Positions 1 through 20,793 are shown, numbered from the stretch's first letter. The stretch is DNA of 21,039 bases from a virus (IMGVR_UViG_2718218398_000002), one strand, 5' to 3'. Program-made: numbers and translations. Notes: a model not told the origin generated them from the sequence alone.

Positions 1-558
1 ATGAATACAGCTATAACTTTTTCTAACGAGTCACCAAAAGTCTTTTTCAAAGATGGTCGCCTGGTTACCACCTCTCAAGCTGTTGCCGACTACTTCGATA
101 AACAACATAAACACGTTTTAGCTAAGATTGACACACTCGACTGCTCTCCCGAATTTACATCAGCCAACTTTTCGGCCGATGTTCAGACTGTCGAAATTGG
201 CAACGGCGCAGAACGTGAATCACGATGCTACCTGATCACAAAAGACGGCTTCATGTTCCTCGTAATGGGATTTACTGGCAAAAAAGCAGCCAGACTAAAA
301 GAAGCTTACATTGAAAAATTTAACGCAATGGAAGAAGAACTCCACAAACGTCCTCCTGCAGCACAAAACTCCCCCGCCCCAAATAATGGATGCGCATTAC
401 TGATCCACTTCGATAAACACGGTCAGGTCGAGTTCACAGAAAAAGTCCCCGCCGATGCGATGGTATGCACGCTGGAACGGTTTAAATTTTATCTGGAGCA
501 ACATGGGTGGATCGTTGCCCGTAAAGAACAATTGGTGGAAAGGTTGATGCGGTTTTAA
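1..558 (+). CDS. Rha-family phage regulatory protein
   Basis: 185-aa ORF; the N-terminal half resembles phage Rha regulatory proteins as recalled from memory. Followed by a hairpin terminator at 568..597. The window begins exactly at its ATG. Confidence 0.6.
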   Translation: MNTAITFSNESPKVFFKDGRLVTTSQAVADYFDKQHKHVLAKIDTLDCSPEFTSANFSADVQTVEIGNGAERESRCYLITKDGFMFLVMGFTGKKAARLKEAYIEKFNAMEEELHKRPPAAQNSPAPNNGCALLIHFDKHGQVEFTEKVPADAMVCTLERFKFYLEQHGWIVARKEQLVERLMRF

Positions 559-567
559 TGAATGCAA

Positions 568-597
568 AACCCCGGATGATCACCGGGGTTAATTTTA
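568..597. terminator. bidirectional intrinsic terminator hairpin between rha and the minus-strand small ORF
   Basis: 8-bp perfect stem aaccccgg / ccggggtt around loop atgatca, followed by a U-rich tract on both strands. Confidence 0.5.
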
Positions 598-684
598 TCG
601 AGCGTGATTGCCGCTAATCGCCATCGCTCTGATTGAGCGTAAATCATTCAGGTTATTCAGTTCTTCCTTCTGCTCTCGCTGACG

Positions 685-831
685 TCAATAAATCCCATCA
701 TTGCGATCAACCTCATCCTTAACCATTGATGCGAGCAGTTCTTCCAGTTTCTGCGCTGACAGCTTTACCTGGTGATCTTCAGCATCTTCCCGGGCTATTG
801 TGGTTCGCGCAGTGGCTGATTTTGCTGACAT
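685..831 (-). CDS. hypothetical small charged protein (48 aa from the internal ATG)
   Basis: Listed in the ORF track as 685..966 (93 aa), but that form starts at a TTG lying inside the tfa-downstream hairpin. The internal-ATG product MSAKSATARTTIAREDAEDHQVKLSAQKLEELLASMVKDEVDRNDGIY has no clear SD and no recognisable family. Confidence 0.2.
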   Translation of the reverse strand: MSAKSATARTTIAREDAEDHQVKLSAQKLEELLASMVKDEVDRNDGIY

Positions 832-919
832 CACCACAGGGGGCAGACGGACCATTGAACCATGGCCTCCGGAACAAATAAGGGCAAAAATAACAACCAC
901 TATCGAAAGCTCACAAACT

Positions 920-1068
920 AACCGCAGCACGTTCCTGCATACGACGTGTCTGCGGCATAATCCCAATGATTACTCCCTGACAGGATTTGCAGGCCACTCA
1001 ATATCAGGTGCAGTTGATGTATCAACACGATTCAACAATACCCGATATTTATTCCATGCCTCCAGCAA
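920..1068. repeat. direct repeat copy A (tfa 3' end plus downstream hairpin)
   Basis: About 150 bp, roughly 85-90% identical to 1971..2118. Covers the last ~30 codons of the Tfa-like ORF and the hairpin ccgcagcacg...cgtgtctgcgg. Confidence 0.8.
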
Positions 1069-1239
1069 CGATCTTTCTTCCTCCGTTGCGATTTCCAGAT
1101 CTACAGCATCCTGCAGTGGCGCAATATACTCACTGAATTCCTGGATGTAGAACTGTGTGGTGACGGTCTTCCAGCCATTCGGCTCCTGCTGTATCGAAGC
1201 ATACCAGGCTATTTCAATATCGCTATGCTGCGGCAGCAT
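970..1239 (-). CDS. tail fiber assembly protein-like (Tfa C-terminal domain only)
   Basis: 89-aa ORF whose C-terminus ([44 protein letters not shown]) matches the conserved C-terminus of Tfa chaperones. It has an SD (AAGGGG) 4-5 nt before the ATG and an in-frame stop immediately upstream, so it is either a short standalone Tfa-like protein or a 5'-truncated remnant. Confidence 0.6.
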
Positions 1240-1266
1240 TTAACCCCTTGTAATTCATCGCCATAA

Positions 1267-1295
1267 TTGATTTAATTCACAAATAAAACTATAAC
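1267..1295 (+). promoter_or_regulatory. putative sigma70 promoter for the methyltransferase gene
   Basis: TTGATT (1267..1272), 17-bp spacer, TATAAC (1290..1295) in an AT-rich divergent intergenic region. The predicted transcription start falls at or after the first ATG, which favours the second ATG at 1308 as the real start. Confidence 0.35.
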
Positions 1296-1964
1296 ATGGT
1301 GAAATCAATGAAAAAAAACACAGATGATGGGGCTAAAATTTACACACCACTTACCCTAAAGCTTTATGACTGGTGGGTTTTGGGAGTATCAAATCGGCTT
1401 GCATGGGGATGTCCTACAAAGGAACACCTTCTTCCACACTTTCTGGAACATGTAGGTAACAACCATCTGGATATTGGTGTTGGAACTGGGTTTTACCTTA
1501 CTCACGTACCTGAGAGTAGTCTGATATCTTTAATGGATTTGAACGAAGCTAGCCTGAACGCGGCATCTACAAGGGCTGGGGAATCAAAAATTAAACATAA
1601 AATTAGCCATGATGTTTTTGAACCTTATCCCGCGGCGTTACATGGTCAATTTGATTCCATTTCCATGTTTTACCTTCTTCACTGCCTGCCTGGAAATATA
1701 TCTACAAAAAGCTGTGTAATACGCAATGCGGCGCAGGCCTTAACTGACGATGGAACTCTATACGGAGCCACAATTCTTGGCGATGGAGTTGTGCACAATA
1801 GCTTCGGTCAAAAACTGATGCGCATTTACAATCAGAAAGGCATCTTTTCAAACACAAAAGATTCCGAAGAAGGCTTAACACATATACTCTCAGAGCATTT
1901 CGAGAATGTTAAAACCAAGGTTCAAGGTACTGTAGTAATGTTTTCCGCTTCAGGGAAAAAATAG
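1296..1964 (+). CDS. class I SAM-dependent methyltransferase, substrate unknown (cargo gene)
   Basis: 222-aa ORF with Rossmann-fold methyltransferase motif I (HLDIGVGTGFY), an acidic residue after beta-2 (LISLMDLNEASL) and a later DDGTLYG motif. No DPPY/NPPY-type DNA-methyltransferase motif. Markedly more AT-rich than the tail genes. Alternative start at ATG 1308 (MKKNTDDG) has a better SD (GGTGA, 5-nt spacing). Confidence 0.6.
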   Translation: MVKSMKKNTDDGAKIYTPLTLKLYDWWVLGVSNRLAWGCPTKEHLLPHFLEHVGNNHLDIGVGTGFYLTHVPESSLISLMDLNEASLNAASTRAGESKIKHKISHDVFEPYPAALHGQFDSISMFYLLHCLPGNISTKSCVIRNAAQALTDDGTLYGATILGDGVVHNSFGQKLMRIYNQKGIFSNTKDSEEGLTHILSEHFENVKTKVQGTVVMFSASGKK

Positions 1965-1970
1965 CATCCA

Positions 1971-2118
1971 ACCGCAGCACGTTCTTGCTTAAGACGTGCT
2001 GCGGCATAATCCCAATGATTACTCCCTGACAGGGTTCGTAGGCCACTCAATATCAGGTGCAGTTGATGTATCAACACGGTTCAGTAACACCCGATACTTT
2101 TTCTAGGCTTCCACCACC
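1971..2118. repeat. direct repeat copy B (tfa 3' remnant plus hairpin)
   Basis: Partner of 920..1068. Contains the hairpin ccgcagcacgtcttaagcaagaacgtgctgcgg and encodes ...[27 protein letters not shown] on the minus strand. Confidence 0.8.
2019..2105 (-). pseudogene. tail fiber assembly gene 3' remnant fused downstream of the pin remnant
   Basis: Minus-strand translation [27 protein letters not shown] then stop, matching the last 27 residues of the Tfa-like ORF at 970..1239. No start codon; it is in frame with the pin remnant through stop codons. Confidence 0.65.
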
Positions 2119-2369
2119 AGCACGACAAGATGCCGCATACAGTGAACCAGTCAGTCCAGTTTTCAGACAACCAGTGCGTCACCTTTTTGAAGGCGCTTTA
2201 AAGCACGTTTTAATCCAGGTCGGCCTGTCCTTGTTCCGCTTAATTTATCTTCAAATATTTGTTCATATCCTGCACAAACAAGAGCGTTTCGTTGCAGATC
2301 TGTATTCTGGTCATTTGTTGATACCCTTACATAGCCAATCAGCACGCTGAATCTCCCGTCCAAAAGCAC
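2106..2369 (-). pseudogene. pin: DNA invertase (Pin/Gin/Hin/Cin serine recombinase family), N-terminal catalytic-domain remnant
   Basis: Translation VLIGYVRVSTNDQNTDLQRNALVCAGYEQIFEDKLSGTRTGRPGLKRALKRLQKGDALVV aligns with the Pin/Gin N-terminus including the catalytic Ser motif. Homology continues in frame through two nonsense substitutions (the W and R codons of the WKLDRLGR region both read TGA) and further missense changes, then is replaced by a tfa 3' end. The C-terminal HTH domain is absent. Confidence 0.8.
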
Positions 2370-2399
2370 AAATCATGCCATGCAGGCCAGAAACCGCCA

Positions 2400-2425
2400 T
2401 TATCTAAAACCTCGGTTTACAGGAA
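2400..2425. repeat. gix/pix-like 26-bp recombination site (left boundary of the invertible segment)
   Basis: TTATCTAAAACCTCGGTTTACAGGAA is a near match to the Gin/Pin crossover-site consensus as recalled. It sits just upstream of the pin remnant and is an inverted partner of 5482..5507. Confidence 0.7.
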
Positions 2426-2470
2426 ACGGTAAACAAGGCTGGTAACGCCGTTCAGCGTTCCGGCGATAAA

Positions 2471-3439
2471 ATGACCGGAGAACTGAAAATTGGCACGGTG
2501 AATGCGCTGCGAATTTTCAATGATGCCTTCGGTCTTATTTTCCGTCGTTCAGAAGATTTTCTTCATTTCATTCCGACGGCTGAAGGACAAGGCGAAAACG
2601 GTGATATCGGCCCATTAAGGCCATTCGCTATAAATCTGAGAACAGGTGCTATATCTGTCAGCCACGGGGCCAAAATTGATGGTGGGCTGGCGCTTGGTAC
2701 AGATAACGCACTGGGCGGTAATTCCATTACTCTCGGAGATAACGACACTGGTATTAAACAGGGCGGCGACGGTGTCCTTTTATTCTATTCAAATGGACAA
2801 CTGGCATTTGGGCTTCAACCCGCATCTGCTGATTTTTATAAGCGGGTTGCATATATTCATCAGGGAATAATTCCTGATGGAAGTGGCGCATTTGCAGACC
2901 AGTTGAATAATGCCACCGCGCCTTTTGTTCAGACGCAGTTTGCCTGGAATCCCACTCCTGGTGGTCTTTACGTGCCGATAGTTAAGGGCTTGTCCATTCG
3001 CAATGGACAGGGCTATCCCGGCGCGGTCAGCTTTGGGTATTTACTGACAGAACAGTATGGATTTCCGGTTCCATGTATTCATATGCGTGGCGATGGCGGT
3101 AATGATGCTTTATGGCAGTTTAACCCGAACGATAAATCCTTTATTTCACCGGGTGCTCTTATTGCGGGTGGCGTCCGTTATAACACCGATGGAAATATAT
3201 TTGGTGGGTGCTGGGGGTCAAACTTAAATGATTACCTGAATAGTTCTTTTATCAGAAATGTGCGTCTGGGAGGCAGACGTTCTGACACATTATATCGCGG
3301 AGGACTTTGCGAACCAGGTAATGGTCATGTGACAACAGGATTGCAAATTATTGGTGAGGTTGATGGAGATGACTGGATGGTGTCACGACCACTACAAAAA
3401 TACATTTCTGGTAACTGGTATAACGTTGAACAGGCATAG
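2471..3439 (+). CDS. alternative tail fiber C-terminal cassette (silent variable part, S'v-like)
   Basis: 322-aa ORF; the frame is open from 2408, directly after the gix-like site. Shares GGNSI(T/V)LGDNDTG and the C-terminal PxQKYIxGxWYNV motif with the C-terminus of the expressed fiber at 4549..7374 but differs elsewhere. No promoter or RBS of its own. Confidence 0.75.
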   Translation: MTGELKIGTVNALRIFNDAFGLIFRRSEDFLHFIPTAEGQGENGDIGPLRPFAINLRTGAISVSHGAKIDGGLALGTDNALGGNSITLGDNDTGIKQGGDGVLLFYSNGQLAFGLQPASADFYKRVAYIHQGIIPDGSGAFADQLNNATAPFVQTQFAWNPTPGGLYVPIVKGLSIRNGQGYPGAVSFGYLLTEQYGFPVPCIHMRGDGGNDALWQFNPNDKSFISPGALIAGGVRYNTDGNIFGGCWGSNLNDYLNSSFIRNVRLGGRRSDTLYRGGLCEPGNGHVTTGLQIIGEVDGDDWMVSRPLQKYISGNWYNVEQA

Positions 3440-3455
3440 CCATCAGGAGAATATA

Positions 3456-3982
3456 TGCAACATCTGAAAAATATTACCGCCGGAAACCCCAAAACCATTG
3501 AGCAGTATCAGCTTACGAAAAAAGCTGGCGTTATCTGGCTATATACAGAAGACGGTAAAAACTGGTATGACGAATTAAAAAAACTTTCAGGATGATACTT
3601 TAAAAATAGCTTATGACCAGAAGGGGATTATTCGTTGTATTGAGAAAGACGTATCAACACTTAACCCTGACGGGTTAAGTGTTGTTGAGTTACCGAATAT
3701 AACAGCCAACCGTCGCGCCGATATCTCGGGAAACTGGAAGTTTCTGGATGGTAAAGTAGTAAAGCGGGAATATACAAAACAGGAACTGCAACAGCAGGCA
3801 GAGTTACAAAAAGCCGCTTTGCTTTCCGAAGCGGAGTCTGTGATTCAACCGCTGGAACGTGCTGTCAGACTGAATATGGCAACTGATGAGGAACGCACAC
3901 GACTGGAATCATGGGAACGCTACAGCGTTATGGTCAGCCGTGTGGATACTGCAAAGCCTGAATGGCCACAGAAACCAGAATA
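3456..3982 (+). pseudogene. tail fiber assembly protein (alternative cassette tfa'), frameshifted
   Basis: SD AGGAG 6 nt before ATG 3456. N-terminus [41 protein letters not shown] parallels Tfa at 4014..4547. The frame breaks in an A7 run at 3577..3583 (one extra A relative to the in-frame reading) and homology continues in another frame to ...[13 protein letters not shown]. Confidence 0.75.
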
Positions 3983-3992
3983 ACAACAAATT

Positions 3993-4017
3993 AAGGCCCG
4001 TACGGGCCTTTTCTTAT
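3993..4017. terminator. hairpin between the convergent tfa' and tfa genes
   Basis: aaggcccg ta cgggcctt followed by TTTTCTT on the plus strand; it sits between the two convergent stop codons. Confidence 0.5.
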
Positions 4018-4547
4018 TCTGGTGGTTCCGGGAATGTTACAGGAAGAACCGAGGTATCAGTTGTCTCAACCTGTTGCACGTATCGCATCCAGTTCATCAG
4101 TTGCTGTCTGTCTGAATCAGTGATAATCCCCAAAGTAAGCTGTGTTTGCCAGAACTGCGTTTTTTCTCTGGCCTGCTGTAATAATATTTTTTTCTGGTTT
4201 TCCGTCTGTAGGCGCAACTCTTCTTCGGTATATACACGTTTAATGACTGCGCCATCTTTAAACATCCATTTACCTGAGTCGTCAGCACGCCGGTTGGCGG
4301 TAATATCAGGAATCTCAACGACGCTATAACCTTCAGGGTTAAGTGTGGAGGCATCTTTGGTTATGGCAACAATAATATTATTTTCATCGTAAACAATCTT
4401 TATGGTGTCTGGCTGAAAGTTTTTCACTTCCTCATACCAGTTTTTTCCGTCCTCAGAGTAAAGCCAGATAACTCCGTGTTTCTTTGTTAACTCATACTGT
4501 TCCAGTGTTTTAGCATTACCCGCTTTTATGTTCTTTAAGTGCATCAT
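4014..4547 (-). CDS. tfa: tail fiber assembly protein
   Basis: 177-aa intact ORF immediately downstream of the fiber gene, ending in the Tfa-type ...FPEPPE C-terminus and paralogous to the frameshifted tfa'. Confidence 0.85.
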
Positions 4548-4548
4548 A

Positions 4549-7374
4549 TTAAACGCTCGCTACATTATACCAGGTGCCATTTATATACTTTTGAACGGGT
4601 CTGTAATAAACGCCCGCTATATTATCGGCAGAGTTAGACCCTGTATCCTGAACATTAATACCAGACAATACATGACCTGAAGGGCACTGGAAATTCCATG
4701 TTTGCCAGTTGTTCACTCCATAATATTGCTGTGAACCAAGTCGAACATCTTTCACATAACGGGAATCAAAGTTACCGTAATCCGAGGGGTTAACACGCCC
4801 TGTAATATTTATGGTTTTATTACTTTGAATGCTTCCGGAGACAAAGCGCATAACATGGACGTTATTAGCATAAACATCCAGATTACCATCGCCATTTTGT
4901 TTAAAGCCCGTGTCATTATCACCCAATACAATCGAATTACCGCCAAGAGCACTGGATGTTCCGATACCCAGTGCACCATTCAGTTGACCACCAGATAACG
5001 GCAGTGCACCAACATCTCCTGCTGAAGGCTTTCTGGTGGTGGTGTAAAATTCGGACCAGTCGGCTTCAAAACCATAACCATCACGGGCTGAACGATAAAA
5101 AATACCGCCATTTTTATAATTAATCCGAAACTGAGCTGCAGGACAACTTCCTTCTCCCATATAAAAATGAATAATTAACGTTGATGCACCACTAATAGTT
5201 GCGTTATAGGCTCCGCTACTCCAGTTCCATCCAACTGCTTTATCATTCGCAACGGTGCTTCCTGTTTTCCCTAAGGCAAACGCACCAACATGACTTGCTT
5301 TTAATGTGATATCGGAGGAACCATCAAAAGCCACATTGCTTATTTTCCTGGCAGTTTTTAATTTTGCAGCTGTAGAAGCATTGCCGGATAGTTCACCAGA
5401 AAGGCCACCGCTGAATGTTTGTCGATTAGTCCAGGTATTCGCTGTACTGAGTAACGGTATTTTCTCCCCGCTTGTGCCGAGTTCTCGTAAACCGAGGTAT
5501 TCGATAACGGCGGCAACGGTCGATTTCGCAAGAATATCCCGCCCAACTTTTGTCAGGGTTGCCAGACTGGCAACATCATTCCCCGTAAAATACGGAAACC
5601 TGTCTGCCGCAGTAGCAAGCCCGGCCAGCGCCGTCAGGGTGGCATCTTTCGGTTGCTTACCCGCAAGCGCGCTAGTCATGGTGGTCGCAAAATTCGGGTC
5701 GTTGCCCAACGCCGCAGCCAGCTCGTTCAGCGTATTCAGTGCGTCAGGCGACGAGTCCACGAGGGCAGCGATCGCAGCCATAACATAAGCCGTGCTTGCG
5801 ATTTGGGTATTATTCGTTCCCTGTCGCGCAGTTGGTGTTGTTGGCGTTCCGGTCAGTGCAGGACTATTTAAGGGCGCTTTCTTGTTCGTTTCACCCATTA
5901 CCGCCTTAACCGCTTTTGGCGTTGCCGCCAGTGACTCGGAAGTGCTGTTGGTCGCACTGCTGAGCTGTACTATCCCCTTTTTCGTCGTGCTCGCATCCTC
6001 AAGCGCCACGGCGGATGCAATATCCTCTGCCCGTTTTGCCGCTGTCTCGGCGCGCGTTGCCGCGGATTCCGCCGTACTTTTGCTCTGAGCTGCCGCCGTC
6101 GCACTGCCAGCTGCCTCTGTCGCCTTCGTGGATGCCGTCGTGGCGCTGCCCTTTGCTGCTGACGCCTGTCTGGTCGCCTCATCTTTTGAAGCAGACGCAG
6201 ATGATGCCGATGACGCCGCTGAACTGGCTGACGATGCGGCTGCCGCCTTAGAGGAAGCAGCATTGTCTGCTGAAGTCTTTGCATTTGTTTCAGAGGTTTT
6301 TGCTGCAGAAGCAGACCTCGCTGCTGCAGTGGCTTGCTCAGTGGCTTTGCCAGCCTTCGTTGTGGCTGTTGAAGCGGATGATGCGGCGCTTTCTGCCGAT
6401 TTTCCGGCGGCGGTGGCACTGGCTGAGGCCTGCCCGGCACTTGTTGACGCGGCACTGGCAGATAATGCAGCCGCTGTTTTTGAACCTGCCGCAGCTGAGG
6501 CGCTCTGTCCCGCTGCTGTTTCAGAAGACTTAGCGTTCGTCTCGGACGTTTTTGCCGCCTTCGCGGAATTTCCTGCCGCCGTTGCCGAGGAAGCTGCACT
6601 ACTGGCACTTGATGATGCATTCGTTTCTGAAGATTTCGCTGCCTCTTTTGAGGCCGCCGCACCCCGTGCCGAGGTGGCAGCTTCTGACGCCTTCGTGGTC
6701 GCTGTGGATGCAGAAGTGGCTGCCGATTTTTGTGATGCTGCGGCATTCGTTTCTGACGTTTTCGCGGCACTGGCGCTGGTAGCTGCCGCGCTTTTTGATG
6801 ACTCTGCAGCAGCAGCACTTTTTGCTGCTTCACGGGCCTTTGTCGATGCCGTTCCTGCGCTGGAAGACGCTGACTGAGCCGACGACGCGGCCTGTCCGGC
6901 TGACGTGCTGGCGGCACGTGATGAGGCTGCAGCATCGGTTGCATGAGTTGCCGCCTCGCTGGCTGATGCACTGGCATCGCTGGCTGATTTTTTCGCGGCT
7001 GCCGTATTCTGTGCAACCGCGGAGGCGTTACGTGACACCTCTTCTACCATCTGCTCAAAGCGGCGCAGTGCCTCCGGTCGTACATCATCCTCCGTCATGG
7101 CACCGAGAAAATCATTCAGCGTACCTGGTCTGGAACCTTCATAGACGGTAATGGTCCCGGCATGTGAAGGCGGAAAACCTTCAACCAGCAGGGTGACGCT
7201 GTACTGACCATGCTCAACATCCATGCTGTAACGTCCGGCTTCATCCGGATTTTCAGAGGCCACCGTGTTCACCACCACCGTGCTGCTGGTTCGTCTGGCC
7301 TTCAGCACAATGGTGCAGTTCTGTACTGGTTTTCCTGTGCCATCTTTAAGCACGCCAGAAATTTTTACTGTCAT
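4549..7374 (-). CDS. stf: side tail fiber protein, lambda Stf-like N-terminus with an invertible-cassette C-terminus
   Basis: 941-aa intact ORF with RBS GGTGGA. N-terminus [26 protein letters not shown]... and the long Ala/Ser/Thr-rich repeat region resemble lambda Stf as recalled. The C-terminal ~316 aa lie inside the invertible segment and end in [18 protein letters not shown]. Confidence 0.9.
5482..5507. repeat. gix/pix-like 26-bp recombination site inside stf (right boundary of the invertible segment)
   Basis: TTCTCGTAAACCGAGGTATTCGATAA matches the reverse complement of the 2400..2425 site at 22 of 26 positions with an identical central AAACCGAGGT core. It encodes ...[11 protein letters not shown]... 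at the constant/variable junction of the fiber. Confidence 0.65.
5990..7010 (-). repeat. imperfect tandem repeats encoding the Ala/Ser/Thr-rich low-complexity region of the fiber
   Basis: Repeated peptide units such as [10 protein letters not shown] and [21 protein letters not shown]-rich and repetitive DNA that also produces long spurious ORFs in other frames (5970..7016 minus, 6128..6877 plus). Confidence 0.7.
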
Positions 7375-7388
7375 ACTTTTCCACCAAT

Positions 7389-7420
7389 AAAAAAAGCCCG
7401 CAGCAGTGACGCCACGGGCT
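7389..7420 (-). terminator. intrinsic terminator downstream of lom
   Basis: Stem agcccg...cgggct followed on the minus strand by a U7 tract; located between the lom stop and the stf RBS. Confidence 0.5.
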
Positions 7421-7520
7421 TCAGGACAGTGTAACTTTACGTTTCCTCAAACGCAGTTCACCCCATAAGGTGGATGAACCTGCGTATCATAACAATATTT
7501 ACAGAAGATAAATCGGCGTC

Positions 7521-7750
7521 TGTTGTCAGAAACGGTATCCGATACCAACAATAAATGCATCCGTTCGCCAGTCGCCACTACCGGAACCTTCATAAGCAAG
7601 GTCAATGGTCACGGATTCGGTCGGGTTAAACTGCACGCCAGCCCCCCACGCCAGAGACGTGTTGCTGTGGCGACCGTCATCACTTCCGGTCAGCACATCG
7701 TGCGTTTTCCCCTTGTTGTCAGTTACGCGGAGATAATCCCCGGAGAAAGT
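7521..7750 (-). pseudogene. lom: lom (Ail/Lom-family outer membrane protein) 3' fragment, separated by the IS insertion
   Basis: Minus-strand translation ...SGDYLRVTDNKGKTHDVLTGSDDGRHSNTSLAWGAGVQFNPTESVTIDLAYEGSGSGDWRTDAFIVGIGYRF then stop, matching the lambda Lom C-terminus. Confidence 0.85.
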
Positions 7751-7836
7751 TGCGTATTACCGTGAAGGAGATCGGTGAGTAACATCGATGGAGATCGGTT
7801 CGTGTCACTTTCACAGAACCGTTTTTTAAATTACCT

Positions 7837-8586
7837 TCACTGATCTCCTTCGGTCAACGGAGATTGTATTTTCCGCATTGATTCTCCTTTAAGTTCGATC
7901 TTGATACTGCCATGAACCAGTCGATCTAGGATGGCATCCGCATGTGTGGAGTCTCCGATCATTTTGTACCAGTTTTCCACCGGCAACTGGCTCACTACGA
8001 TGATTGAGCCTCGTTGGTACATCAGATCCACTATTTCCAGCAGGTCGCTACGCTGTTCTGATGAGAGAGGTTCCAGCCCCCAGTCATCCAGAAGCAGCAG
8101 ATCGCTATTATTCAGCCTGGTCAAAAGTTTGCTGTATCTTCCATCAGCATGCCCCTGATAGCACTGTTCCATCAGCGCTTTAAGGCGATAATAGTAGACC
8201 TTGTATCCCTGTCGGCAGGCATTATGACCAAGTGCACATGCCAGGAACGTTTTACCGCTGCCGGTGGCCCCGGTCAGTAAAATATTTTGTTTCAGGGTTA
8301 ACCAGTTTCCCTGACTGAGTGAACGGATGAGGGCCCTGTCCAGCCCTCTATTGTTACGATAATCCAGCTTTGATAACTCAGCATTAAGTCTGAACCGTGC
8401 ATGTTTGATCAGACGCTCTGCCTTCCTGTTTTCACGGCAGGTTAGTTCTTCTGCTGTCAGTAATGACAGGCGTTCTTCGAAGCCCAGCTCCTGGTATGTG
8501 CCCGGTTGAGCAAGTTGCTTTTTAAGCGCATCACGGAAGCCGGTGAGTTTAAGTGCGGTCAGTTGTTCGTAAAGATGATTCATCAT
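7837..8586 (-). CDS. istB: IS21-family transposition helper ATPase IstB
   Basis: 249-aa ORF with a Walker A motif (LTGATGSGKTFLACALG) and Walker B (LLLLDDWG), typical of IstB. Confidence 0.85.
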   Translation of the reverse strand: MMNHLYEQLTALKLTGFRDALKKQLAQPGTYQELGFEERLSLLTAEELTCRENRKAERLIKHARFRLNAELSKLDYRNNRGLDRALIRSLSQGNWLTLKQNILLTGATGSGKTFLACALGHNACRQGYKVYYYRLKALMEQCYQGHADGRYSKLLTRLNNSDLLLLDDWGLEPLSSEQRSDLLEIVDLMYQRGSIIVVSQLPVENWYKMIGDSTHADAILDRLVHGSIKIELKGESMRKIQSPLTEGDQ

Positions 8587-8597
8587 TGGATCCCGTA

Positions 8598-10139
8598 TCA
8601 GTGGTAATACTCACTGCCGCGTACGTTTTCGTGTTCCATCGTGGATAACAGATCTGGTTTTGGATCCTGAACAGGTTGTTTATCCAGACCTTTTTCCAGG
8701 ATCGATTTAATACCTGACAGACGCCATACCTTTGTTTTCAGAGCTCTTGCACATGCTGCATTAAGTCTGGCTTTACTGTATTTTTTATGAAGGTTCAGGA
8801 GTCCAAGGCAGAAGCGATAGCTTTGTTCCGGATGTGGACGAGAGTTCAGTATATGAAGCACATAACTATGAGTTTCACTGCCTATGTGCCCCGCCCATTC
8901 CAGAAGACGCTCTGGCGTCCAGGTGGCATGCTGTCGATGAGCTTCAGGCATGTGCTCGTTGCGGGTACTGTAGCCATAAGTACGCTTGCGCGGGTGCACA
9001 GCAACCTCCTGCCCCTGATTGAAGAGTCTTACCAGTTCTCCGGAGATCCATGCTTCCAGTTGCTGGCCTAACAGCGAACATGGAACCGAGTAGTAATGTT
9101 TGTCGATTTCCACGTGGTAATCGGCATGAACTCTGACTTTCTTCACCAGGGTGTAACTGTAACTGGCTTCAGGAAGAGGCTTCAGTGCGGGTTTATCAAG
9201 CTGGATGAAGAGTTCTGCACGTGAATAACCCAACTTCTGCATTATTTTGTTATTCAGTCTTTCCAGCAACTCCCGAATGCGCTGATTAAGCGATGCAAGG
9301 CTGTAGAAGATCTCATGCCTGATTCGGGCCATGATCCAGCGTTCAACAACCTGAACGCCAACTTCAGCTTTGGCTTTATCTTTCGGTTTACGTGGCCGCG
9401 CAGGCAAAACTGCGACATTATAATGCTCAAGCATCTGCTGGTAGGTAGGGTTAACGTCAGGATCATACTTACATGCCCTGGATGTGGCGCTTTTCAGATT
9501 GTCCGGAACAACAAGTTCAGGAACGCCACCCAACCACTGGAAGCAGCGAACATGACTCATCACCCAGTCTTCAAGCTGCTGAGACCAGGTGGCCTCTGCC
9601 CATGTGTAACTTGATGCCCCGAGAACAGCTACGATGACCTGAGCAGTTCTTATTTCTCCGGTCTCAGGGTCGGTAACGCCAACGGTAGGTCCACAGTAAT
9701 CAACGAAAAGTTTTTCGCCAGCTTTATGTACCTGACGCATTGATGGTGAAGTGGTTTTGAGCTATTCACGGTACATCCGGCAGTAATGGTTATAGCTGTA
9801 AAAACCGCCTGGATTACGCTCACAGTATTCTTCCCAGAGTAGCTGCAGCGTCACGCATTTATTACGCAGTTCCCGGTGTACTGTAGCCCAGTCAGGCAGA
9901 GAGTGCTTCTTCATCTTAACCTGGGTCTGAAGGAACGCATGTTTTAGTTTTGTATCATCCCATCCTGTAGGTAAGGGCCACTGCTTTATGCCAAGTTGAG
10001 CCGCCCGATTAGCATATCTGGATACAACGGAAGGGGAGATTGCAAGACTACGACCAATTTGTCGATGGCTGAGTCCAACACCGTATTTAAGCCTAAGAAT
10101 TTCTTTAAGTTTTCTCATAGAAATTGGAACTGTTGGCAT
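8598..10139 (-). pseudogene. istA: IS21-family transposase IstA, interrupted by an in-frame TAG
   Basis: The N-terminal HTH ORF (9762..10139, 125 aa) and the DDE-domain ORF (8598..9740, 380 aa) are in the same frame, separated only by an amber codon at 9762..9764 (...[19 protein letters not shown]...). Confidence 0.65.
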
Positions 10140-10332
10140 AGGTATCCTTTACCGGAATGGCAAAAGATACAGATCAACACACCTGTGAAGTTCCAATAAC
10201 ATTGATGGAGATCACTGAATAACAAAATGAGTCAAAAGTGATCTCCATCGATGTTATTCAGCGATCTGTTCAAATGTTATTACCCGATCTCGATGGAAGT
10301 TATTGAGTGATCTCCTTTCATGAAAATACGCA

Positions 10333-10712
10333 AAAGTCGACACACGGCTGTAAGCCACACCCGCCATCGCATACGCGCTGAACCATTCATTCACGCGTAC
10401 AGACGGCCCCGCCATCACGCTGAACCAGCGGTTACGCACGGAATCTTCATGCCAGCGGGTATCGCTGTAGCGCGTTTTTTGCTCATCCTCAGCATTGGCA
10501 TAACTGAAGGACGTAATCAGCCCCAGCGCGTCCGTAAACTCATAACGGTATTTCACGTTAATCCCGTTCAGATCATCACTACCGGGAACGTTCGTCGAGG
10601 CATGGAGATACCCCGCGCTCAGCGTGGACTGATGTTCTGCTGCACTCGCTGGCGTAGCAGCGGCGACCTGCCAGACTACTGCGGACAAAATAACAGCACA
10701 TAATTTACGCAT
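10333..10712 (-). pseudogene. lom: lom 5' fragment (signal peptide and N-terminal beta-barrel portion)
   Basis: MRKLCAVILSAVVWQVAAATPASAAEHQSTLSAGYLHASTN...AYSRVSTF matches the lambda Lom N-terminus up to the IS junction. SD GAGAGG precedes the ATG. Confidence 0.85.
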
Positions 10713-10737
10713 AATTACCTCTCGCTTTTCTGCAATA

Positions 10738-10761
10738 AAAAAGGCGCCATTTCTGGCGCCC
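10738..10761 (-). terminator. intrinsic terminator between J and lom
   Basis: Perfect stem ggcgcc / ggcgcc around a 6-nt loop, followed on the minus strand by UUUUUUAUU. Confidence 0.6.
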
Positions 10762-10779
10762 GTATCTGGGTTATAAAAT

Positions 10780-13700
10780 TCAGCTAATCGTGATGCCTGC
10801 AGTGGCTTTCTTCATCACCACAACCAGCAAATCGCTGATACTTGCTGTGGGATACCAGTTATTTACCAGCCATGCTGACACCGAAAACTCCAGTGTCATG
10901 TGACCGTGACCGGCAGGCATATCAATAACACCACTGTAAATCAGCGTATTATCCAGCGCGGTACGGTTATAAATTTCAGCACCGTTTTTCCGCACTATCA
11001 GACGGCATGAGGAGTAAATATCAGTATGCTCTTTCTCATGTTTAGCGCCGCTGAATGCCACCGCCGGAATAACAATCTGCCGGTCAAACGGCTGATCGTC
11101 ATAAACCCTGACGGTAATGGTTCCTGATGGCCACCGCTCCGGTGCACGGGAGTCCCGGGGGAAAGCTTTGCCCACTGTTTTAACGAGATCGCCTTCAATC
11201 TGGTTCGCGGACAATTTTCCCAGAACCCGACAGTTCTCGTTAATCGTGACGTTGTTGAGCGTCCCGGAGTTCGCATTCACGTTACCGCTGATATCGGCAT
11301 TTTTCGCCGTCAGCCGCCCGTCCGGTGTCAGGGAAAATGCCGGAGGATTACCGCCGCTGGTAATGGTGGGAGCCGTCAGATATTTCAGGAACACTTCATT
11401 CATAAATATCTGATCGCCCTGACCAACAAACATCGGCTTTGTGTTGCCATTCGCAGGATTAATCATCGCAATCCTGTCTGCCGCCAGCAGCACCTGACTC
11501 TGCATTCCTGCTGGCGTATTCTCAATACCGGCACCGATACCCGCAATATAAAGGCGTCCGTCCTGCATCTGCTGCAGTTTCACGGCCCACATGCTGTTCA
11601 GGTTATTATTTGTATCAACCTGAACTTTCTGTATCTGCTGGATTGCCGCACTCTGATTTTCCAGTTTTTTATTGACGGTCTGCGTGATTTCATTGCTGAC
11701 ATTCGTAATGGACGTCCTGATTTCAGCCAGGTCCGGCGCAAGCTGACCGTTATCAATCTGCGTCCACAGCTCCTGGGCCAGATGTGTTTTCCCGATTTCT
11801 CCTTTGAAAAAATCCAGGTAACCTTCCGCATCATCGCTCGCCCGACCGACAGCCTCCACGAATGCCGATTTGCCAACAGTATTCACACTGCGGATATAAA
11901 AATAATAATCATGGCCCGGTTTGATATTGATACTGGCAGCTATCCAGTACAGCGCCGAGCCAAGATAGCGGGCTGCGGTTTCAACCTGCCTGATATCCGC
12001 AATCCGCTTTTCCGAGAACCAGAACTCAAACTGTACCGTCGGGTCATAAACGGCAAGATGTGGCGTTGCGGTTATCTGAAAATAGCCCGGCGTCAGCTCA
12101 ATCCGCGACGGTGCTGCCGGTGCGGCAATCCGGAAGGTGGTGGTGGCAGGTTCACCCTGCTGGCCATAGCTGTTTATCGCCCGCACCGTCAGGGTGTATT
12201 CCCCGAGCGGCAGGCCGCTGAAACGGTGCTCCGTGTCTGCGGTGATGGCGGTGGTCACCAGTCTGGCATCCGTTCCCTTACCACTGGTCAGGCGCAGACT
12301 GAAGCGCACACCCTTCACCACCCGCGGCGTGTCCATTTCGCCTGCGCCAGATACTGGCCGTCAGCTGCGCTCACCTCCACCGTCAGGTGCTGCACTGCCG
12401 GTGGGATGACGCTGTTCAGGGAACCTGACTGCGGCTCAAAGCGGGCACCGTTATCCACGATGGCTTCTTTTTCCGGTACGTGCTGCACCGCCGTGATGGC
12501 AAAGGTGCCGTCCGTGTTTTCCCGGATGGAGACACAGCGGAACAGGCGACGGCGCAGTGACGGCAGGGAGAGTCCCCCACACCCCGTATGTCTCCACACC
12601 ATCAGGCAGGGTACTGACCTGTATCCGGTCCGGCGCGGGGTGTGCGGTGATGTCCACACTCACCGGCTTACCGCTGCCGTTAATCAGGTTCACCGCCGAT
12701 GTACCTGTCTCCGGCAGGGTAACCTCACGGTCCAGCGTCAGGGTGCGGGTGGCAGCATCAATGGACAGGACACGTCCGCCGGTCAGGGTCCCGGCATAGT
12801 CATTATCACAGATTTCAATAATGTCACCGGGTGTGTGCCGCAGCCCCTGAGACCCGAGCGTGAAATCCACCGTCTGCGTTTCCAGCAGTTCGGTCTTTAT
12901 CACCCACAGTCCGGCACGGTGGGCCTGACCGCGGCTGGTACAGCCGAACGCGTCCATCTTCAGCAGGTTGCGTCCGTAGCGCAGTATGGCTTCCGGGTCT
13001 TCCACCAGTTCCGTGGAGGTCTGCCAGCCGTTCTGCGGGTCGGTGTAATTCACCTCCACCGCCGTGTGCCGGTCCTTCAGGGCACTGAAGCTGTAGCGGA
13101 ATCCCACGCCGTTATCATCCACCACCACATCGCTGTTGGTGTACGGCCACACCACATCCGACGGGCGGTCCTGAACGAACGTCAGCGTCTGACCGTTCCA
13201 TACCGGGCATACAGCGCATCGCAGAGCAGAAATCACTGAGAACGTCCCACGCCTTACGCTGTTGTGCCAGGTACGCATTAAAGGTCATCCGCGGCTCGGT
13301 CCCCCCGAAACCATCCGGGACCGTCTGGTCGCAGTACTGCCCGATGGCATACAGCGCCCACTTGTCCACATCCGCCGCCCCCAGACGTTTTTCCCATGCC
13401 GTAGCGCGGGTGAGTCAGCATGTCCCACAGACACCAGGCCGGGTTGTTGCTGTATGCCGGTTTCAGACTGCCGTCCCAGATACCACTATACGTGCGTTTT
13501 TCCGGGTCATAGTTTGACGGCACCTGGATGATGCGACCGCGGATATGGTAGTTCACCGTCATCTGCTGGCCGCCGAACTGCTCCGCATCCACCTGCAGCC
13601 CCACAATGGCCGTGTTCGGGTAGCACTGTTTCACATCGATGATTTCGGTGTATGACGACCACAGCGTCTTATTCTGCAGCTGGTCCGTGGTGCTGTCCGC

Positions 13701-14255
13701 CGTCTCCCTGACCATCCGGATGTTAAAGGGCCGGGGAGGCAGATTATCCAGAATCACCGAGGCCAGGAACTGTGAGGTGGTCTTGCCGTTAATGGTGACG
13801 TCCTTTTCTGTCACCCAGTTACCGTTACGCTGTAACTGAATCAGCAGGCGGACGGATGCCGGGTTACGGTCACCCTTTGAGGTGGTCTCCACCAGTGACT
13901 GCACCCCGAAGGTAACCCGCAGGCGGTCAATGTTCGCGGACGTAATGGTGCGCGTCACCGGTTTTGCCTTCGTCACTTCCACGCCCAGTCCGGTTTCAGC
14001 TCCGGAGGACTCAAAGCCTTCCGGTGGTGTCTGCTCCTGCTCCCCGGCGCGCCAGACCGCCGTCACACCGTGTATCACGGGATTGCCGTCCGTGTCCGTC
14101 AGTGGGGTTTTGTTCACCAGAATACTCTGCAGTCCCTTCACCGGACCTTCTATCGGTCCCTCACCAATCGCATCAATCACGCTCATCATCTGCGTGGATT
14201 TGAGATTATCCTTCGCCTCACGAGGCGTGTGTGCCTTACCGCCACCTTTTCCCAT
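10780..14255 (-). pseudogene. J: tail tip / host specificity protein J, broken by four single-base frameshifts
   Basis: Five consecutive minus-strand ORFs (13278..14255, 13115..13369, 12451..13278, 12315..12659, 10780..12336) are collinear with lambda J from its MGKG... N-terminus onward. Each junction is a 1-bp indel in a homopolymer (near 13387..13391, 13205..13207, 12573..12577 and 12337..12338). Confidence 0.85.
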
Positions 14256-14359
14256 ACAGCCTTCCCCTGAATAAATTAACCGCCACTTGCCATTCCGTAC
14301 AGAAGTCGGATATCCTTCGCCCGAAAAGCATGAAACACATTTCTGCCATGCTAAAGAGA

Positions 14360-14393
14360 AACCCCGGTATCAGCAGATACCGGGGTTTTCTTT
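14360..14393. terminator. strong hairpin inside the I-J intergenic insert
   Basis: Perfect 11-12-bp stem accccggtatc / gataccggggt with loop agca, followed by TTTTCTTTC on the plus strand and UUUCUCUUU on the minus strand. Confidence 0.45.
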
Positions 14394-14462
14394 CATGCCC
14401 ACCGATAATCCTGTTGGTTAAAACCGGGTAATGGCATAAAAATTTCTGAATATCTTCACATT

Positions 14463-14490
14463 TTCACACACTGACTGTGGCGCTTATAAT
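14463..14490 (+). promoter_or_regulatory. near-consensus sigma70 promoter, plus strand, antisense to the tail operon
   Basis: TTCACA (14463..14468), 16-bp spacer, TATAAT (14485..14490), with an AT-rich UP-like tract just upstream (14433..14460). Confidence 0.4.
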
Positions 14491-14496
14491 TTCGCT

Positions 14497-14594
14497 GCGT
14501 TAGTGTTTTTTTGCCCGAGTAACAAAAACAACTCCTTAACATTGATCTTCATTTGTCTGTCCCCGCAGCTCCGCGATCACTGCGGGATTTTTTT
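14497..14594 (+). ncRNA. candidate ~100-nt small RNA (promoter to terminator, no ORF)
   Basis: Lies between the predicted transcription start after the TATAAT box and the intrinsic terminator at 14562..14594. Contains no ATG with an SD. Confidence 0.25.
14562..14594 (+). terminator. intrinsic terminator, plus-strand orientation, abutting the I stop codon
   Basis: Stem cccgcag...ctgcggg followed by T7 (14588..14594). On the minus strand an A-run precedes the stem, so it is not a canonical terminator for gene I. Confidence 0.5.
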
Positions 14595-14599
14595 ATGTT

Positions 14600-15282
14600 T
14601 TATCCCTGTCGCCCGATAACCACGACCGTTCCGCCCCCGCCTTCATCACGGGTGCTGATGTCCTGGGATATACGGCGGGAGCCAACCAGCATTTCCCCGT
14701 AAGGCACCGGCATCGGGTTCCCCTGGGCAATCATGTTATCCAGCGAGGAAAAGTACGTGTTCTGTCTGCCGTTATCCGTTGCGCGGTAATCCGGTGTTTT
14801 TGCCTTCGGGGCCAGCATCTGGGCCACACCGCCCAGAATCATGCTGGCTCCAAGTGAAAACAGCATCGTGGTGGCAGAAAAACCACCGGGCTGCCAGGGC
14901 TGAACCCCATAACGCCATTGATGCCCCGGCAGTGAAGAAAGAGCCCACGATGGCTGCCGCCCCCAGGCACAATCTGCAGTCCACCCTTTCCGGCCCCGGC
15001 CAGTCGCGGCACAATATGGATGACCGTTCCCTCACCCAGCTGTTCGTGAAGACGGGCGTACACCGCCTCCGGTGCCGTGTCATAACCGGCAATACGTATC
15101 TGGTACCAGCCTTCGTTCATCTGACGGCGAAAGCCCGGCACCTGTAACGACAGCGCCCGGATGGCTTCCGCTGCCGTGTTCACATACAGGCTGAGGCGGC
15201 GGCCAAATCGTTGTAAATCCCCGTGAAGGCAGATGCGTGCCAGTGGCGGTGACGCCAGACAGAATGCGTTCGTCGTTGCCAT
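14600..15282 (-). pseudogene. I: tail assembly protein I, two frameshifts
   Basis: Three overlapping minus-strand ORFs (14839..15282, 14772..15092, 14600..14866) are collinear with lambda I (ARICLxGDLQRFGRR ... AAAIxGSFFTAGA ... LFSLGASMxLGGVAQMLAPKA ... NTYFSSLDNM). Confidence 0.8.
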
Positions 15283-15922
15283 TTTTCGGAATACCTCTCC
15301 CGTTTACTCAGTTGTTCAGGCAGATGGTGAAGCAGCTCACCGTTGCCGCAGTAAATGGCGGCATGGTTCGGTACCGAAGCACCAAAGCAGCACAGCAGAA
15401 TATCGCCCGCCTGTGCAGAGGACAGGGGCACCCGGTAAAAGCCGGTGACCGCCATATTGTCCAGGTAAAGGTTCTGACCGTTGCGCCACCAGTCATCCTC
15501 GCGATGAAATCCGGCATTTCAGTCCCCGCCAGATGATAAGCATCCCGGAACAGCGTGTAACAGTCCGTCACCCCGTGCTCAAAGCGCCGTCCTGTCAGAT
15601 GTGGCACACAGCGGAATTTGTGAATGTCACCCCGGCAGACCAGCCACCAGGGCAGTGCGCTTTTTATCTGCAGCCGCCGGTCAGCCTCGCTCAGCCAGGG
15701 CAGCCCACCGGGATGACTGTGGACCAGTGCCACAATCTCCCCCTGCATCTCTGCCCGCAGCCAGTCTTCCGGTGCGATACGAAAATACGCCTCCGGCTCT
15801 GCAGAAATATTCACACAAGGGATATACCACTCCCCCTCCGACGTGCTTATCACGAAGCCGCACGACTCCGCAGGCGCACACCGCCGGGCATGCGCCAGAA
15901 TCGCTGATTCAGTCTGTGTCAT
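15180..15922 (-). pseudogene. K: tail assembly protein K (MPN/JAMM plus NlpC/P60-like), one frameshift
   Basis: MTQTESAILAHARRCAPAESCGFVIS...HSHPGG...DCYTLFRDAYHLAG then a frame break (a single-base deletion near 15505, changing TTCC to TTC in the coding sense), continuing as ...VTGFYRVPLSSAQAGD...PNHAAIYCG... in the ORF 15180..15455. Overlaps the start of I by about 100 nt. Confidence 0.8.
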
Positions 15923-15932
15923 AAACCGGGAT

Positions 15933-16631
15933 TTACTGCGAAAGTTTATTAATGGAAAGGAAACCGCCAAAATTGCCGACATTCCTGCGCAGTTCACACC
16001 CGCGCATGCACTTGCTGCATCTGTCCTTACGGATATCCGTGGTGGGGTTGTCGAACTCATCCGCCACCGCAGGACCGTTATACCCGCATTCATCTCCCCG
16101 GTAATCCCACATACAGGTGTTCGCCAGCATGATGCGACCGGGAAACAGCGCCCCATCCGTCTCGGTCGGTGTAGCCAGCACAAACGAGGCCGTCATGGCT
16201 GTCAGCTGCGACATCTGCTCCACCACCCAGCGGTCACTCAGCTCCTGCTCCGGGTCCGCCTCCGGATTGCCCGCAACGAAATTCACCGCATCCAGAAAAC
16301 GGGCATACACCCGGCGGCGGACCACCGTGGCCCCCACCAGACTCTGCAGGTCTTCCGCCATCCCGGTGACCAGACCGAACAGATTGGACACCGTCAGCGA
16401 CGGTCTGGCACTGCTGCCCTTCCCGCTCATCTCAAAACCGCTGCCGTCAATCGGGTATGCCTGATATTGCCGCCCCTGCCAGGTGACCGGCTCCCCTTTT
16501 TCATTCAGCTCATTACAGAAAAAATACCGCTCACCGCCCTGTACCGTCAGGTCGATTTCCCAGAGTACCACCCGCGGTGACTGCTCTGACTTAACCGACT
16601 CGTTCAGACTTTCTTCGCGAATATCCTGCAT
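15933..16631 (-). CDS. L: tail tip assembly protein L
   Basis: 232-aa intact ORF; MQDIREESLNE...GNFGGFLSINKLSQ is collinear with lambda L throughout. Confidence 0.9.
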   Translation of the reverse strand: MQDIREESLNESVKSEQSPRVVLWEIDLTVQGGERYFFCNELNEKGEPVTWQGRQYQAYPIDGSGFEMSGKGSSARPSLTVSNLFGLVTGMAEDLQSLVGATVVRRRVYARFLDAVNFVAGNPEADPEQELSDRWVVEQMSQLTAMTASFVLATPTETDGALFPGRIMLANTCMWDYRGDECGYNGPAVADEFDNPTTDIRKDRCSKCMRGCELRRNVGNFGGFLSINKLSQ

Positions 16632-16972
16632 CAGTTCACCACCTGCTCAATCGTACAACTGAAATCACTGTGCCTGGCGTTATCTGTGACGCTCCACTCC
16701 CGGCACACCACCCTCACCGTCAGGTTATGTTTCGGCGGTCGCCACAAAAAGGCACGGTAACCACCATGCCACGATAAAAATTCATCCAGCCAGCGCCGGG
16801 TTGGTTCATCCGTCACCCGGAACACCGCCTGAAACGTCTTCAGTCTGGCATTAAGTCCCGTCGGTCGGCGCTGTTCATAACCGTCACCAAACCGAACCCT
16901 CACCACCGACGGTTTCTCACTCACCTGCATCCCTTCACGCGGGACCAGATGCAGCGTTTTTATCTCAGCCAC
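16631..16972 (-). CDS. M: minor tail protein M
   Basis: 113-aa intact ORF with the lambda M-like core VRFGDGYEQR and C-terminus IEQVVN; its stop overlaps the L start. Confidence 0.85.
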   Translation of the reverse strand: MAEIKTLHLVPREGMQVSEKPSVVRVRFGDGYEQRRPTGLNARLKTFQAVFRVTDEPTRRWLDEFLSWHGGYRAFLWRPPKHNLTVRVVCREWSVTDNARHSDFSCTIEQVVN

Positions 16973-19900: not shown

Positions 19901-20216
19901 GATGACTGCGACGCGCCTGTTTCAGTCGGGCATTCACGGAACTCCATTCATCGGCCAGAGAAATCAGGTGTCCGGTGGCAAAGGCACCTGCAAATGCCCC
20001 CGCCGTTCCGGCAGCTGAAGCGCGGATTTCCGTCAACTGGCTGTTCAGCTCAGCCAGGGCGCGTCGCTGCACCCGGGCGACTGCGGCAGCCTGACGCCCG
20101 CCATTCTGCAGGGTCCGGTAATATTCACTGCCCATGCGGGAAGCCCGCTGGATCTCCGACTGGAATGACTGCGAATTTGCCGAAATTTTGATAATCAGTT
20201 CACGTAACGTCGCCAT
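16965..20216 (-). pseudogene. H: tail tape measure protein H, at least seven frameshifts
   Basis: Chain of eight overlapping minus-strand ORFs from 19869..20216 (N-terminus MATLRELIIKISANSQSFQSEIQRA) to 16965..17429 (C-terminal Gly-rich region resembling the lambda H C-terminus). Total span about 3.25 kb. Confidence 0.8.
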
Positions 20217-20263
20217 TCACCTTTCTCCGGGCGTAAAAAAACCGCCTCAGCGGTTCTCATCAT

Positions 20264-20766: not shown

Positions 20767-20793
20767 CGACAGGGTATCGTCATCCTCTCTCCA

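Follow-up and report, generated by a model that had tools for sequence, protein, structure and literature searches.

A tail-fibre cassette beside a dead invertase gene occurs in both orientations in prophage Phi4 of Escherichia coli ST131

Introduction

Does a phage tail-fibre switch stop when the invertase gene beside it dies? The question is raised by a 21,039-nucleotide stretch of viral DNA (IMGVR_UViG_2718218398_000002; the whole stretch is called the window here), in which a fragment of a Gin/Pin-family invertase gene lies next to a two-sided fibre cassette. The original prediction for this locus was that the dead invertase leaves the switch probably locked, in the orientation that expresses a 941-aa fibre, unless an invertase is supplied in trans.

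By sequence comparison, we assign the window to Phi4, a defective lambdoid prophage of E. coli ST131 that is inserted at ompW beside trpA; the window covers its tail end. Bases 600–2480 are found at 100% identity in hundreds of E. coli ST131 chromosomes, those of JJ1886 and strain 4/0 among them, and in JJ1886 the matching region adjoins trpA and a truncated ompW. Window 1–2420 and 5487–7651 are 100% identical to EC958. The PGAP annotation of JJ1886 gives, in order, a Rha-family regulator, a DUF4376 pseudogene, a tfa pseudogene, a class I SAM-dependent methyltransferase, a second tfa pseudogene ('missing N-terminus'), a 'recombinase family protein' pseudogene ('missing C-terminus'), two mirror-image fibre-tip/tfa pairs and a 941-aa 'prophage tail fiber N-terminal domain-containing protein'.

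This locus was described by Forde et al. (2014; PMC4134206) as prophage Phi4 of EC958, with a 'truncated' invertase, EC958_1582, that is without the helix-turn-helix (HTH) domain PF02796, and an invertible tail-fibre segment of 3106 bp. An alternative-orientation Phi4 contig was assembled from the same PacBio culture, placing both alleles in one EC958 culture, and in prophage Phi1 the sister segment was flipped in about 50% of reads. The authors proposed that inversion of Phi4 must be driven in trans, with the Phi1 invertase the probable driver. The broken invertase gene is real, ordinary, already annotated (as a PGAP pseudogene) and already published (as EC958_1582); the tfa fusion, the internal stop codons and the retained enhancer zone analysed below are not described in that paper. 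Here, we set out the anatomy of the remnant, the orientations in which the cassette occurs and the readings that these allow.

Results

An invertase remnant joined in frame to the end of a tfa gene

The remnant and its fusion partner comprise the following features.

2114–2345, minus strand: what is left of a Gin/Pin-family serine DNA invertase gene, its first 77 codons with Ser9 kept (alignment, Pfam PF00239, PDB Gin)
2166–2345: recombinase pseudogene missing its C-terminus, as delimited by PGAP
2019–2113, minus strand: 3′ end of a tail-fibre-assembly (tfa) gene, 31 codons including TAA, in frame with the stub (Pfam Caudo_TAP)

The family start falls at GTG 2345–2343, in the frame that runs from 2345 to 2114, when the sequence is aligned with Mu gin, the invertase of EC958 Phi1, another P2-type invertase and K-12 pinE. 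The comparison set consisted of Gin, PinE, the two P2-type invertases and PDB Gin and resolvase chains. From this start, the whole fused frame spans 109 codons and terminates with TAA at 2019–2021. The Ser9 nucleophile is present in VLIGYVRVSTNDQ, within the N-terminal GYVRVS-type motif of the Gin/Pin/Cin/Hin invertases. The Pfam Resolvase N-terminal domain (PF00239) covers residues 3–83, corresponding to profile positions 2–92 of 145 (E=6e-19), and the PDB Gin chains 4M6F and 3UJ3 give matches with E~1e-38.

Three stop codons interrupt the frame. Codon 61 is TGA (2163–2165), where all intact relatives have Trp (TGG); codon 65 is TGA (2151–2153), where relatives have Arg; and codon 81, in the tfa-derived part, is TAG (2103–2105), where strain C2 has the Trp codon TGG. 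The stub is identical to Gin at 66 of 77 residues and to the Phi1 invertase at 65 of 77. Three of the 11 differences from Gin (K71R, I74V and S75V) are the residues of K-12 PinE and thus reflect allelic mosaicism rather than decay. The remaining changes, eight in number, are C27Y, D41G, T57A, W61 to stop, R65 to stop, G67V, R68H and S69C. As a result, the segment WKLDRLGRS now reads stop-KLD-stop-LVHC, with DRLGRS degraded to D-stop-LVHC, and the stub has neither an uninterrupted frame nor the catalytic arginines. We take the DRLGR arginines to be the equivalents of R68 and R71 of gamma-delta resolvase. The 3′ end of the stub (MRHLVVLV) is PinE-like; by BLAST, homology to Phi1/Mu-type genes stops at 2155, and the last 40 nt (2154–2114) resemble K-12 pinE.

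Beyond codon 77, homology to intact invertases ends, and the fused frame gave no match to PF02796 by Pfam. A tblastn search of the whole 21-kb window with Gin, PinE and the Phi1 invertase as queries found no C-terminal half of an invertase anywhere. The remnant, which ends in tfa sequence and lacks the HTH, the oligomerisation helix and the catalytic Arg motif, is non-functional.

The tfa-derived part is 95 nt long and matches the last 26 of 131 Caudo_TAP profile positions (E=2e-10), not the full-length domain; PGAP annotates this fragment as a pseudogene. Homology to pinE reaches down to 2114, and homology to tfa, as judged from the neighbouring copy at 950–1067 and from thousands of E. coli tfa genes, reaches up to only ~2116–2119, so the junction lies between 2114 and 2113, with a microhomology of 0–3 bp at most. 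We considered whether invertase sequence extends further, to residue ~95–99 (window 2058), and rejected this: the protein alignment runs past the junction by a chance likeness of Tfa to RSLTDSIDTSS of Pin, and the stretch past the junction is 89–97% identical to tfa genes at the DNA level. More generally, the Tfa C-terminus at window 2058–2100 resembles Pin/Gin residues 87–98 (FRSLTDSIDTSS) by chance, so that protein alignments of invertases overrun the true junction by ~20 residues.

The anatomy first proposed for this locus largely holds. The catalytic-serine N-terminus is indeed kept and the C-terminal HTH is indeed gone. Two nonsense substitutions do lie in the Pin part, and a third stop belongs to the tfa part; of the missense changes counted as decay, six (C27Y, D41G, T57A, G67V, R68H and S69C) stand as such, and the three PinE residues do not. 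The proposed lengths need correction. The Pin part is not about 85 codons but 77 (2345–2114), the larger figure having counted eight upstream non-coding codons from a GTG at 2369, and the tfa part is not 27 codons but 31 including the stop, 27 being those that follow the TAG.

The lesions are genuine and partly ancestral

The fusion junction is present in 537 of 5426 complete E. coli genomes, scored with a 151-nt query at a coverage of at least 80%, with 395 records at an identity of at least 99%. A 96%-diverged copy of the stub occurs in a different lambdoid prophage, at the bioA-ybhB locus of strains C2 and TUM2820. This copy shares the junction and the stop at codon 65, whereas codons 61 and 81 still encode Trp and codon 27 Cys. 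The fusion and one stop are thus ancestral, and decay of the ST131 copy went further afterwards. In C2 (locus sequence 5102–5296) and TUM2820 (6096–6290), PGAP treats the 64-codon stub as intact and names it a 'recombinase family protein', WP_001378636.1, which constitutes an annotation trap; a diguanylate cyclase gene comes next.

One could suppose that the stops and the fusion are errors of sequencing or assembly and that an intact invertase is really present. The window assembly is noisy, with ~25 short indels relative to strain 4/0, mostly in homopolymer runs. However, all of these lie at 3577 or beyond, and window 1–2420 is base-for-base that of EC958 and identical to polished ST131 genomes, so the lesions are not attributable to sequencing artefact, as had been anticipated from their being substitutions and a fusion. 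The junction recurs, moreover, in the 537 complete genomes, which come from many laboratories and platforms, and the diverged C2 copy shares it along with the codon-65 stop. We give the error reading practically no weight; the window is best regarded as a noisy assembly in which the fusion region is clean and its stops and junction are genuine.

Two crossover sites bound an intact fibre cassette

Next to the stub lies an invertible cassette with the following parts.

2400–2425: invertase-proximal 26-bp gix-like crossover site, TTATCTAAAACC TC GGTTTACAGGAA, central dinucleotide at 2412–2413 (inverted repeat, pattern enrichment)
5482–5507: second 26-bp crossover site, TTCTCGTAAACC GA GGTATTCGATAA, within the fibre gene and in inverted orientation
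2412–5495: invertible segment, ~3.1 kb, a mirror arrangement of two alternative C-terminal fibre exons, each paired with a tfa of its own
4549–7374, minus strand: tail fibre gene in its current orientation, 941 aa, the first 629 constant (PGAP WP_023363168.1)
4014–4547, minus strand: tfa cognate to the expressed fibre tip (full-length Pfam Caudo_TAP; PGAP)
2471–3439, plus strand: alternative C-terminal exon of the fibre gene, silent as read; after inversion it encodes the tip of a 968-aa fibre
3455–3983, plus strand: silent alternative tfa gene, frameshifted in the window and intact in JJ1886, EC958 and 4/0

The two sites form an inverted 26-bp pair with matching central dinucleotides (TC/GA), as is characteristic of the Gin family, and agree with the consensus table of PMC4134206. 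The site at 5482–5507 is identical at 26 of 26 positions to the fibre-side site of EC958 Phi1, and the Phi1 invertase-proximal site differs at three positions. In a search of the window for gix-like sequences, only these two known sites stood out. A weak palindromic match to the gix core at 15922–15935 (TAAATCCCGGTTTA, 2–3 mismatches), among the tail genes, is probably due to chance.

Inversion of the segment in silico produced an open 968-aa fibre that shares its 629 N-terminal residues with the 941-aa fibre. Thus, both states are coding, each exon being paired with its cognate tfa in mirror arrangement. A run of seven A residues at 3571–3577, which is A6 in JJ1886, EC958 and 4/0, frameshifts the silent tfa in the window only, and further short indels relative to 4/0 (~25, at 7822–20786) break J, the tape-measure gene and other tail genes; both are probably long-read assembly noise.

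The segment is found in both orientations beside the same stub

Orientation was scored in complete E. coli genomes with junction queries. The flipped query joined 2050–2411, which contains the stub with its tfa fusion, to the reverse complement of 5257–5495, with the exchange placed at the central TC. Since the flipped and native queries share only 60% of their length, the threshold for presence, a coverage of at least 80%, is orientation-specific. The flipped junction was found in 301 genomes and the native junction, that of the window, in 152, beside the same dead stub. The flipped-junction matches listed (the best 30 of 301) were all 100% identical and included EC958, 4/1-1, 4/4, U13A, U14A and U15A. 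The last three of these have a close relative, U12A, that carries the window orientation; U12A to U15A were isolated serially from the urine of one patient and are separated by 26 core SNPs (PMC6692316). In ST131 wound isolates, a preprint reports PCR-confirmed, reversible inversion in a prophage labelled Entero_BP_4795, with invertase genes only in two other prophages (bioRxiv 10.1101/2022.05.07.487787). We infer that the prophage so labelled is Phi4.

These observations bear directly on the idea that a dead invertase has frozen the cassette in the 941-aa-fibre orientation. The cis invertase, judged by what is left of it, is certainly non-functional, and the segment would be expected to stay put in a host without any Gin-family invertase. 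Against this stand the 301 and 152 genomes with opposite orientations beside an identical stub, the two orientations within one patient lineage and within one culture, and the intact invertases in all three carrier genomes inspected (EC958, JJ1886 and U13A). A frozen cassette is, in our estimation, very improbable. For ST131, the prediction of a lock is contradicted, and we conclude that the Phi4 fibre switch is not locked in this lineage; what applies is the proviso attached to that prediction, namely that an invertase might be supplied in trans.

Comparison of the window with EC958 locates the exchange. EC958 holds window 2394–5513 inverted, and the differences amount to one homopolymer base and three outer half-site bases per end, at 2399, 2405 and 2408 on one side and 5499, 5502 and 5508 on the other. 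An inner-half difference, AG/GA at 2421–2422, moves with the segment. As the outer bases differ and 2421–2422 travels with the segment, the exchange took place between 2408 and 2421, around the central dinucleotide, which maps it to the 12-bp gix core.

This precision also bears on whether the two orientations could have arisen through RecA-dependent homologous recombination at the inverted repeats, with no site-specific invertase involved. The sites do sit in an imperfect inverted repeat of 32–36 bp (PMC4134206, Table 3). Yet the repeat is very short and broken by mismatches, and the exchange is confined to the 12 bp between the mismatches at 2408 and 2421, centred on the canonical dinucleotide. 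The roughly half of Phi1 reads that were flipped, together with the separate alternative contig for Phi4 from one culture (PMC4134206), point the same way: they imply a frequency far above that of RecA acting on ~12 bp of identity. We regard recombination of this kind as a shade less probable even than a frozen cassette.

An intact invertase elsewhere in the chromosome probably drives inversion

Candidate enzymes are at hand. Both EC958 and JJ1886 carry an intact 199-aa invertase, WP_000905061.1, in the P2-like prophage Phi1, and U13A has another P2-like prophage at the same place, with an intact PinE-like invertase that is 82.5% identical in amino acids to PinE and 88% to the Phi1 enzyme. A Pin enzyme has been shown experimentally to act on another prophage: PinQ of Qin inverts the P segment of e14 (PMC12529663).

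In the mechanism that we favour, the Phi4 fibre gene ends in an invertible cassette of the Mu-G/P2 type whose own invertase gene is dead, while the parts that act in cis survive, namely both 26-bp crossover sites and the 5′ part of the invertase gene, in which members of this family have their Fis-dependent enhancer. The segment still inverts, and the enzyme that drives it would be an intact Gin-family invertase acting in trans from another chromosomal locus. For EC958 and JJ1886, the Phi1 invertase, with crossover sites nearly the same as those of the window, is the best candidate. The invertase content of the source strain is deduced from these relatives. We put the probability of this explanation as a whole (a dead cis invertase, surviving cis sites and trans-driven inversion) at about 85%.

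Inversion by wild-type enzymes of the Gin/Hin family depends on an enhancer in cis that is bound by Fis. That of Hin measures 65 bp and lies ~100 bp from hixL (PMC3798978), and in Mu the Fis sites fall within the gin coding region (PMC3378877). The corresponding zone of the window is as follows.

2243–2323: putative Fis-dependent enhancer zone of the family, 90–170 bp from the gix centre and inside the stub (position and homology only)

Over this zone, Mu gin and Phi1 pin agree with each other at 80/80 positions, and the window agrees with each of them at 78 of 80. Of its two departures from them, one, a GAC to GAT change relative to Mu in a candidate Fis site, is shared with the functional K-12 pinE. 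A degenerate Fis-motif scan of the zone returned many candidates and no clean pair spaced by 48 bp, which is why the enhancer is defined by position and homology. A scan for promoters and terminators across 850–2500 found nothing above shuffled expectation. Taken together, conservation and placement suggest that the stub may supply the enhancer for inversion.

It is a further step to propose that the stub, present in ~10% of complete E. coli genomes, has been kept because it acts as a cis Fis-enhancer. The switch would then be a 'satellite' of the invertase of a co-resident P2-like prophage, and its flipping might serve the host, for example through receptor masking or defence, as shown for PinQ and e14. 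We hold this to be speculative, and rather unlikely. If it were true, the stub would be a neat example of a pseudogene retained as a cis-acting DNA element.

The fusion as a possible scar of cassette capture

Homology to P2-like prophages, as traced by BLAST, begins at about window 6000, inside the fibre gene, and continues through the cassette into the stub, with lambdoid sequence on both sides. Within this block, window 4228–5511, which comprises the expressed fibre tip and part of its tfa, is 96.4% identical to the silent half of the Phi1 cassette (Phi1 locus sequence 4319–5602). This similarity suggests an exchange of cassettes between co-resident prophages.

One reading of the fusion is that it is the right-hand scar of the capture of a P2-type cassette into a lambdoid stf-tfa region, in which case the lineage would never have had a working invertase of its own. 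This concerns the origin of the locus and is compatible with inversion by an invertase acting in trans. The P2-like block flanked by lambdoid sequence and the allele shared with Phi1 are what a capture would leave. In addition, MRSN346638 has the tfa 3′ end, the same downstream hairpin and the methyltransferase gene without any invertase, and the event must be old, since the bioA-ybhB prophage of C2 and TUM2820 has the junction too. The same end product would, however, result if a full-length invertase gene had simply been truncated by deletion at a later date, and the 0–3 bp of junction microhomology do not discriminate between the two. We give capture somewhat less than even odds.

The hairpin and methyltransferase gene belong to a repeat arrangement beside the fusion.

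920–1067, minus strand: another copy of the 3′ end of tfa and of the hairpin downstream of it, a direct repeat with 1970–2116

The direct repeat (920–1067 and 1970–2116) is ~148 bp long at 89% identity (89% over 145 nt by BLAST) and brackets a class I SAM-dependent methyltransferase gene at 1296–1964. In MRSN346638, a near-identical methyltransferase gene is likewise flanked by tfa 3′ fragments, with an IS3 element between the gene and one fragment. The methyltransferase gene looks like a moron exchanged by recombination at tfa ends. The hairpin itself, at 1970–2005 (and again at 920–960), stands between the convergent methyltransferase gene and tfa fragment and is predicted at -27.9 kcal/mol (z = -5.2). 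A consensus scan of the hairpin at 1970–2005 showed no U-tract; it may be a bidirectional terminator or a REP-like element.

Other parts of the window are also in disrepair. A DUF4376 pseudogene fragment with an internal stop occupies 596–874, between the Rha regulator and the first tfa fragment, and beside the other remnants it makes the left end of the prophage look like a pile-up of pseudogene fragments. An IS21-family element, ISEc12 (istA/istB), at 7835–10137 splits a lom-like gene into fragments at ~7525–7752 and 10273–10710, which fits a defective prophage. The last ~200 bases of the window (20843–21039) do not align to ST131 references that match the remainder at 99.9%, and may reflect a structural difference or a contig-end artefact.

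Discussion

A cassette whose neighbouring invertase is dead cannot be called locked from the locus alone, because enzymes of the Gin family work in trans across prophages and a gene can be outlived by what is needed in cis (the crossover sites, and probably the enhancer). In ST131 genomics, the Phi4 fibre region may legitimately differ between assemblies; in the complete genomes searched, the two orientations stand at roughly 2:1. Beyond such annotation hygiene, the significance of the locus is slight.

Several characterised systems offer points of comparison. The closest is Phi4 of EC958 itself (PMC4134206), which is the identical locus, with 100% flanks and a segment that is the same save for orientation and one homopolymer base. 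The crossover sites published in Table 3 of that paper are those of the window with their half-sites exchanged, as expected for opposite orientation. The window segment lies opposite to the EC958 reference and in the same orientation as in JJ1886.

The G segment of Mu, with its invertase Gin, shows the same overall plan: a constant fibre part, a gix site, S/U and U′/S′ in mirror arrangement, a second gix site and an invertase gene that reads away from the segment. Mu differs in having a complete 193-aa Gin, whereas the window keeps only 77 codons with stops, and the element that hosts the window cassette is a defective lambdoid prophage, not a Mu-like phage.

In the P segment of e14 and PinQ, as proposed here for Phi4, the Gin-family invertase of one prophage inverts the fibre segment of another, defective prophage. 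Unlike Phi4, e14 retains an intact pinE, and the Phi4 switch is without a known host-level phenotype.

Lastly, the P2-like prophage Phi1 of ST131 shares near-identical crossover sites and one fibre allele, at 96.4% nucleotide identity, with the window. It differs in being a P2-type myovirus prophage at another chromosomal site, and in possessing an intact 199-aa invertase, complete with the C-terminal domain that the Phi4 remnant lacks.
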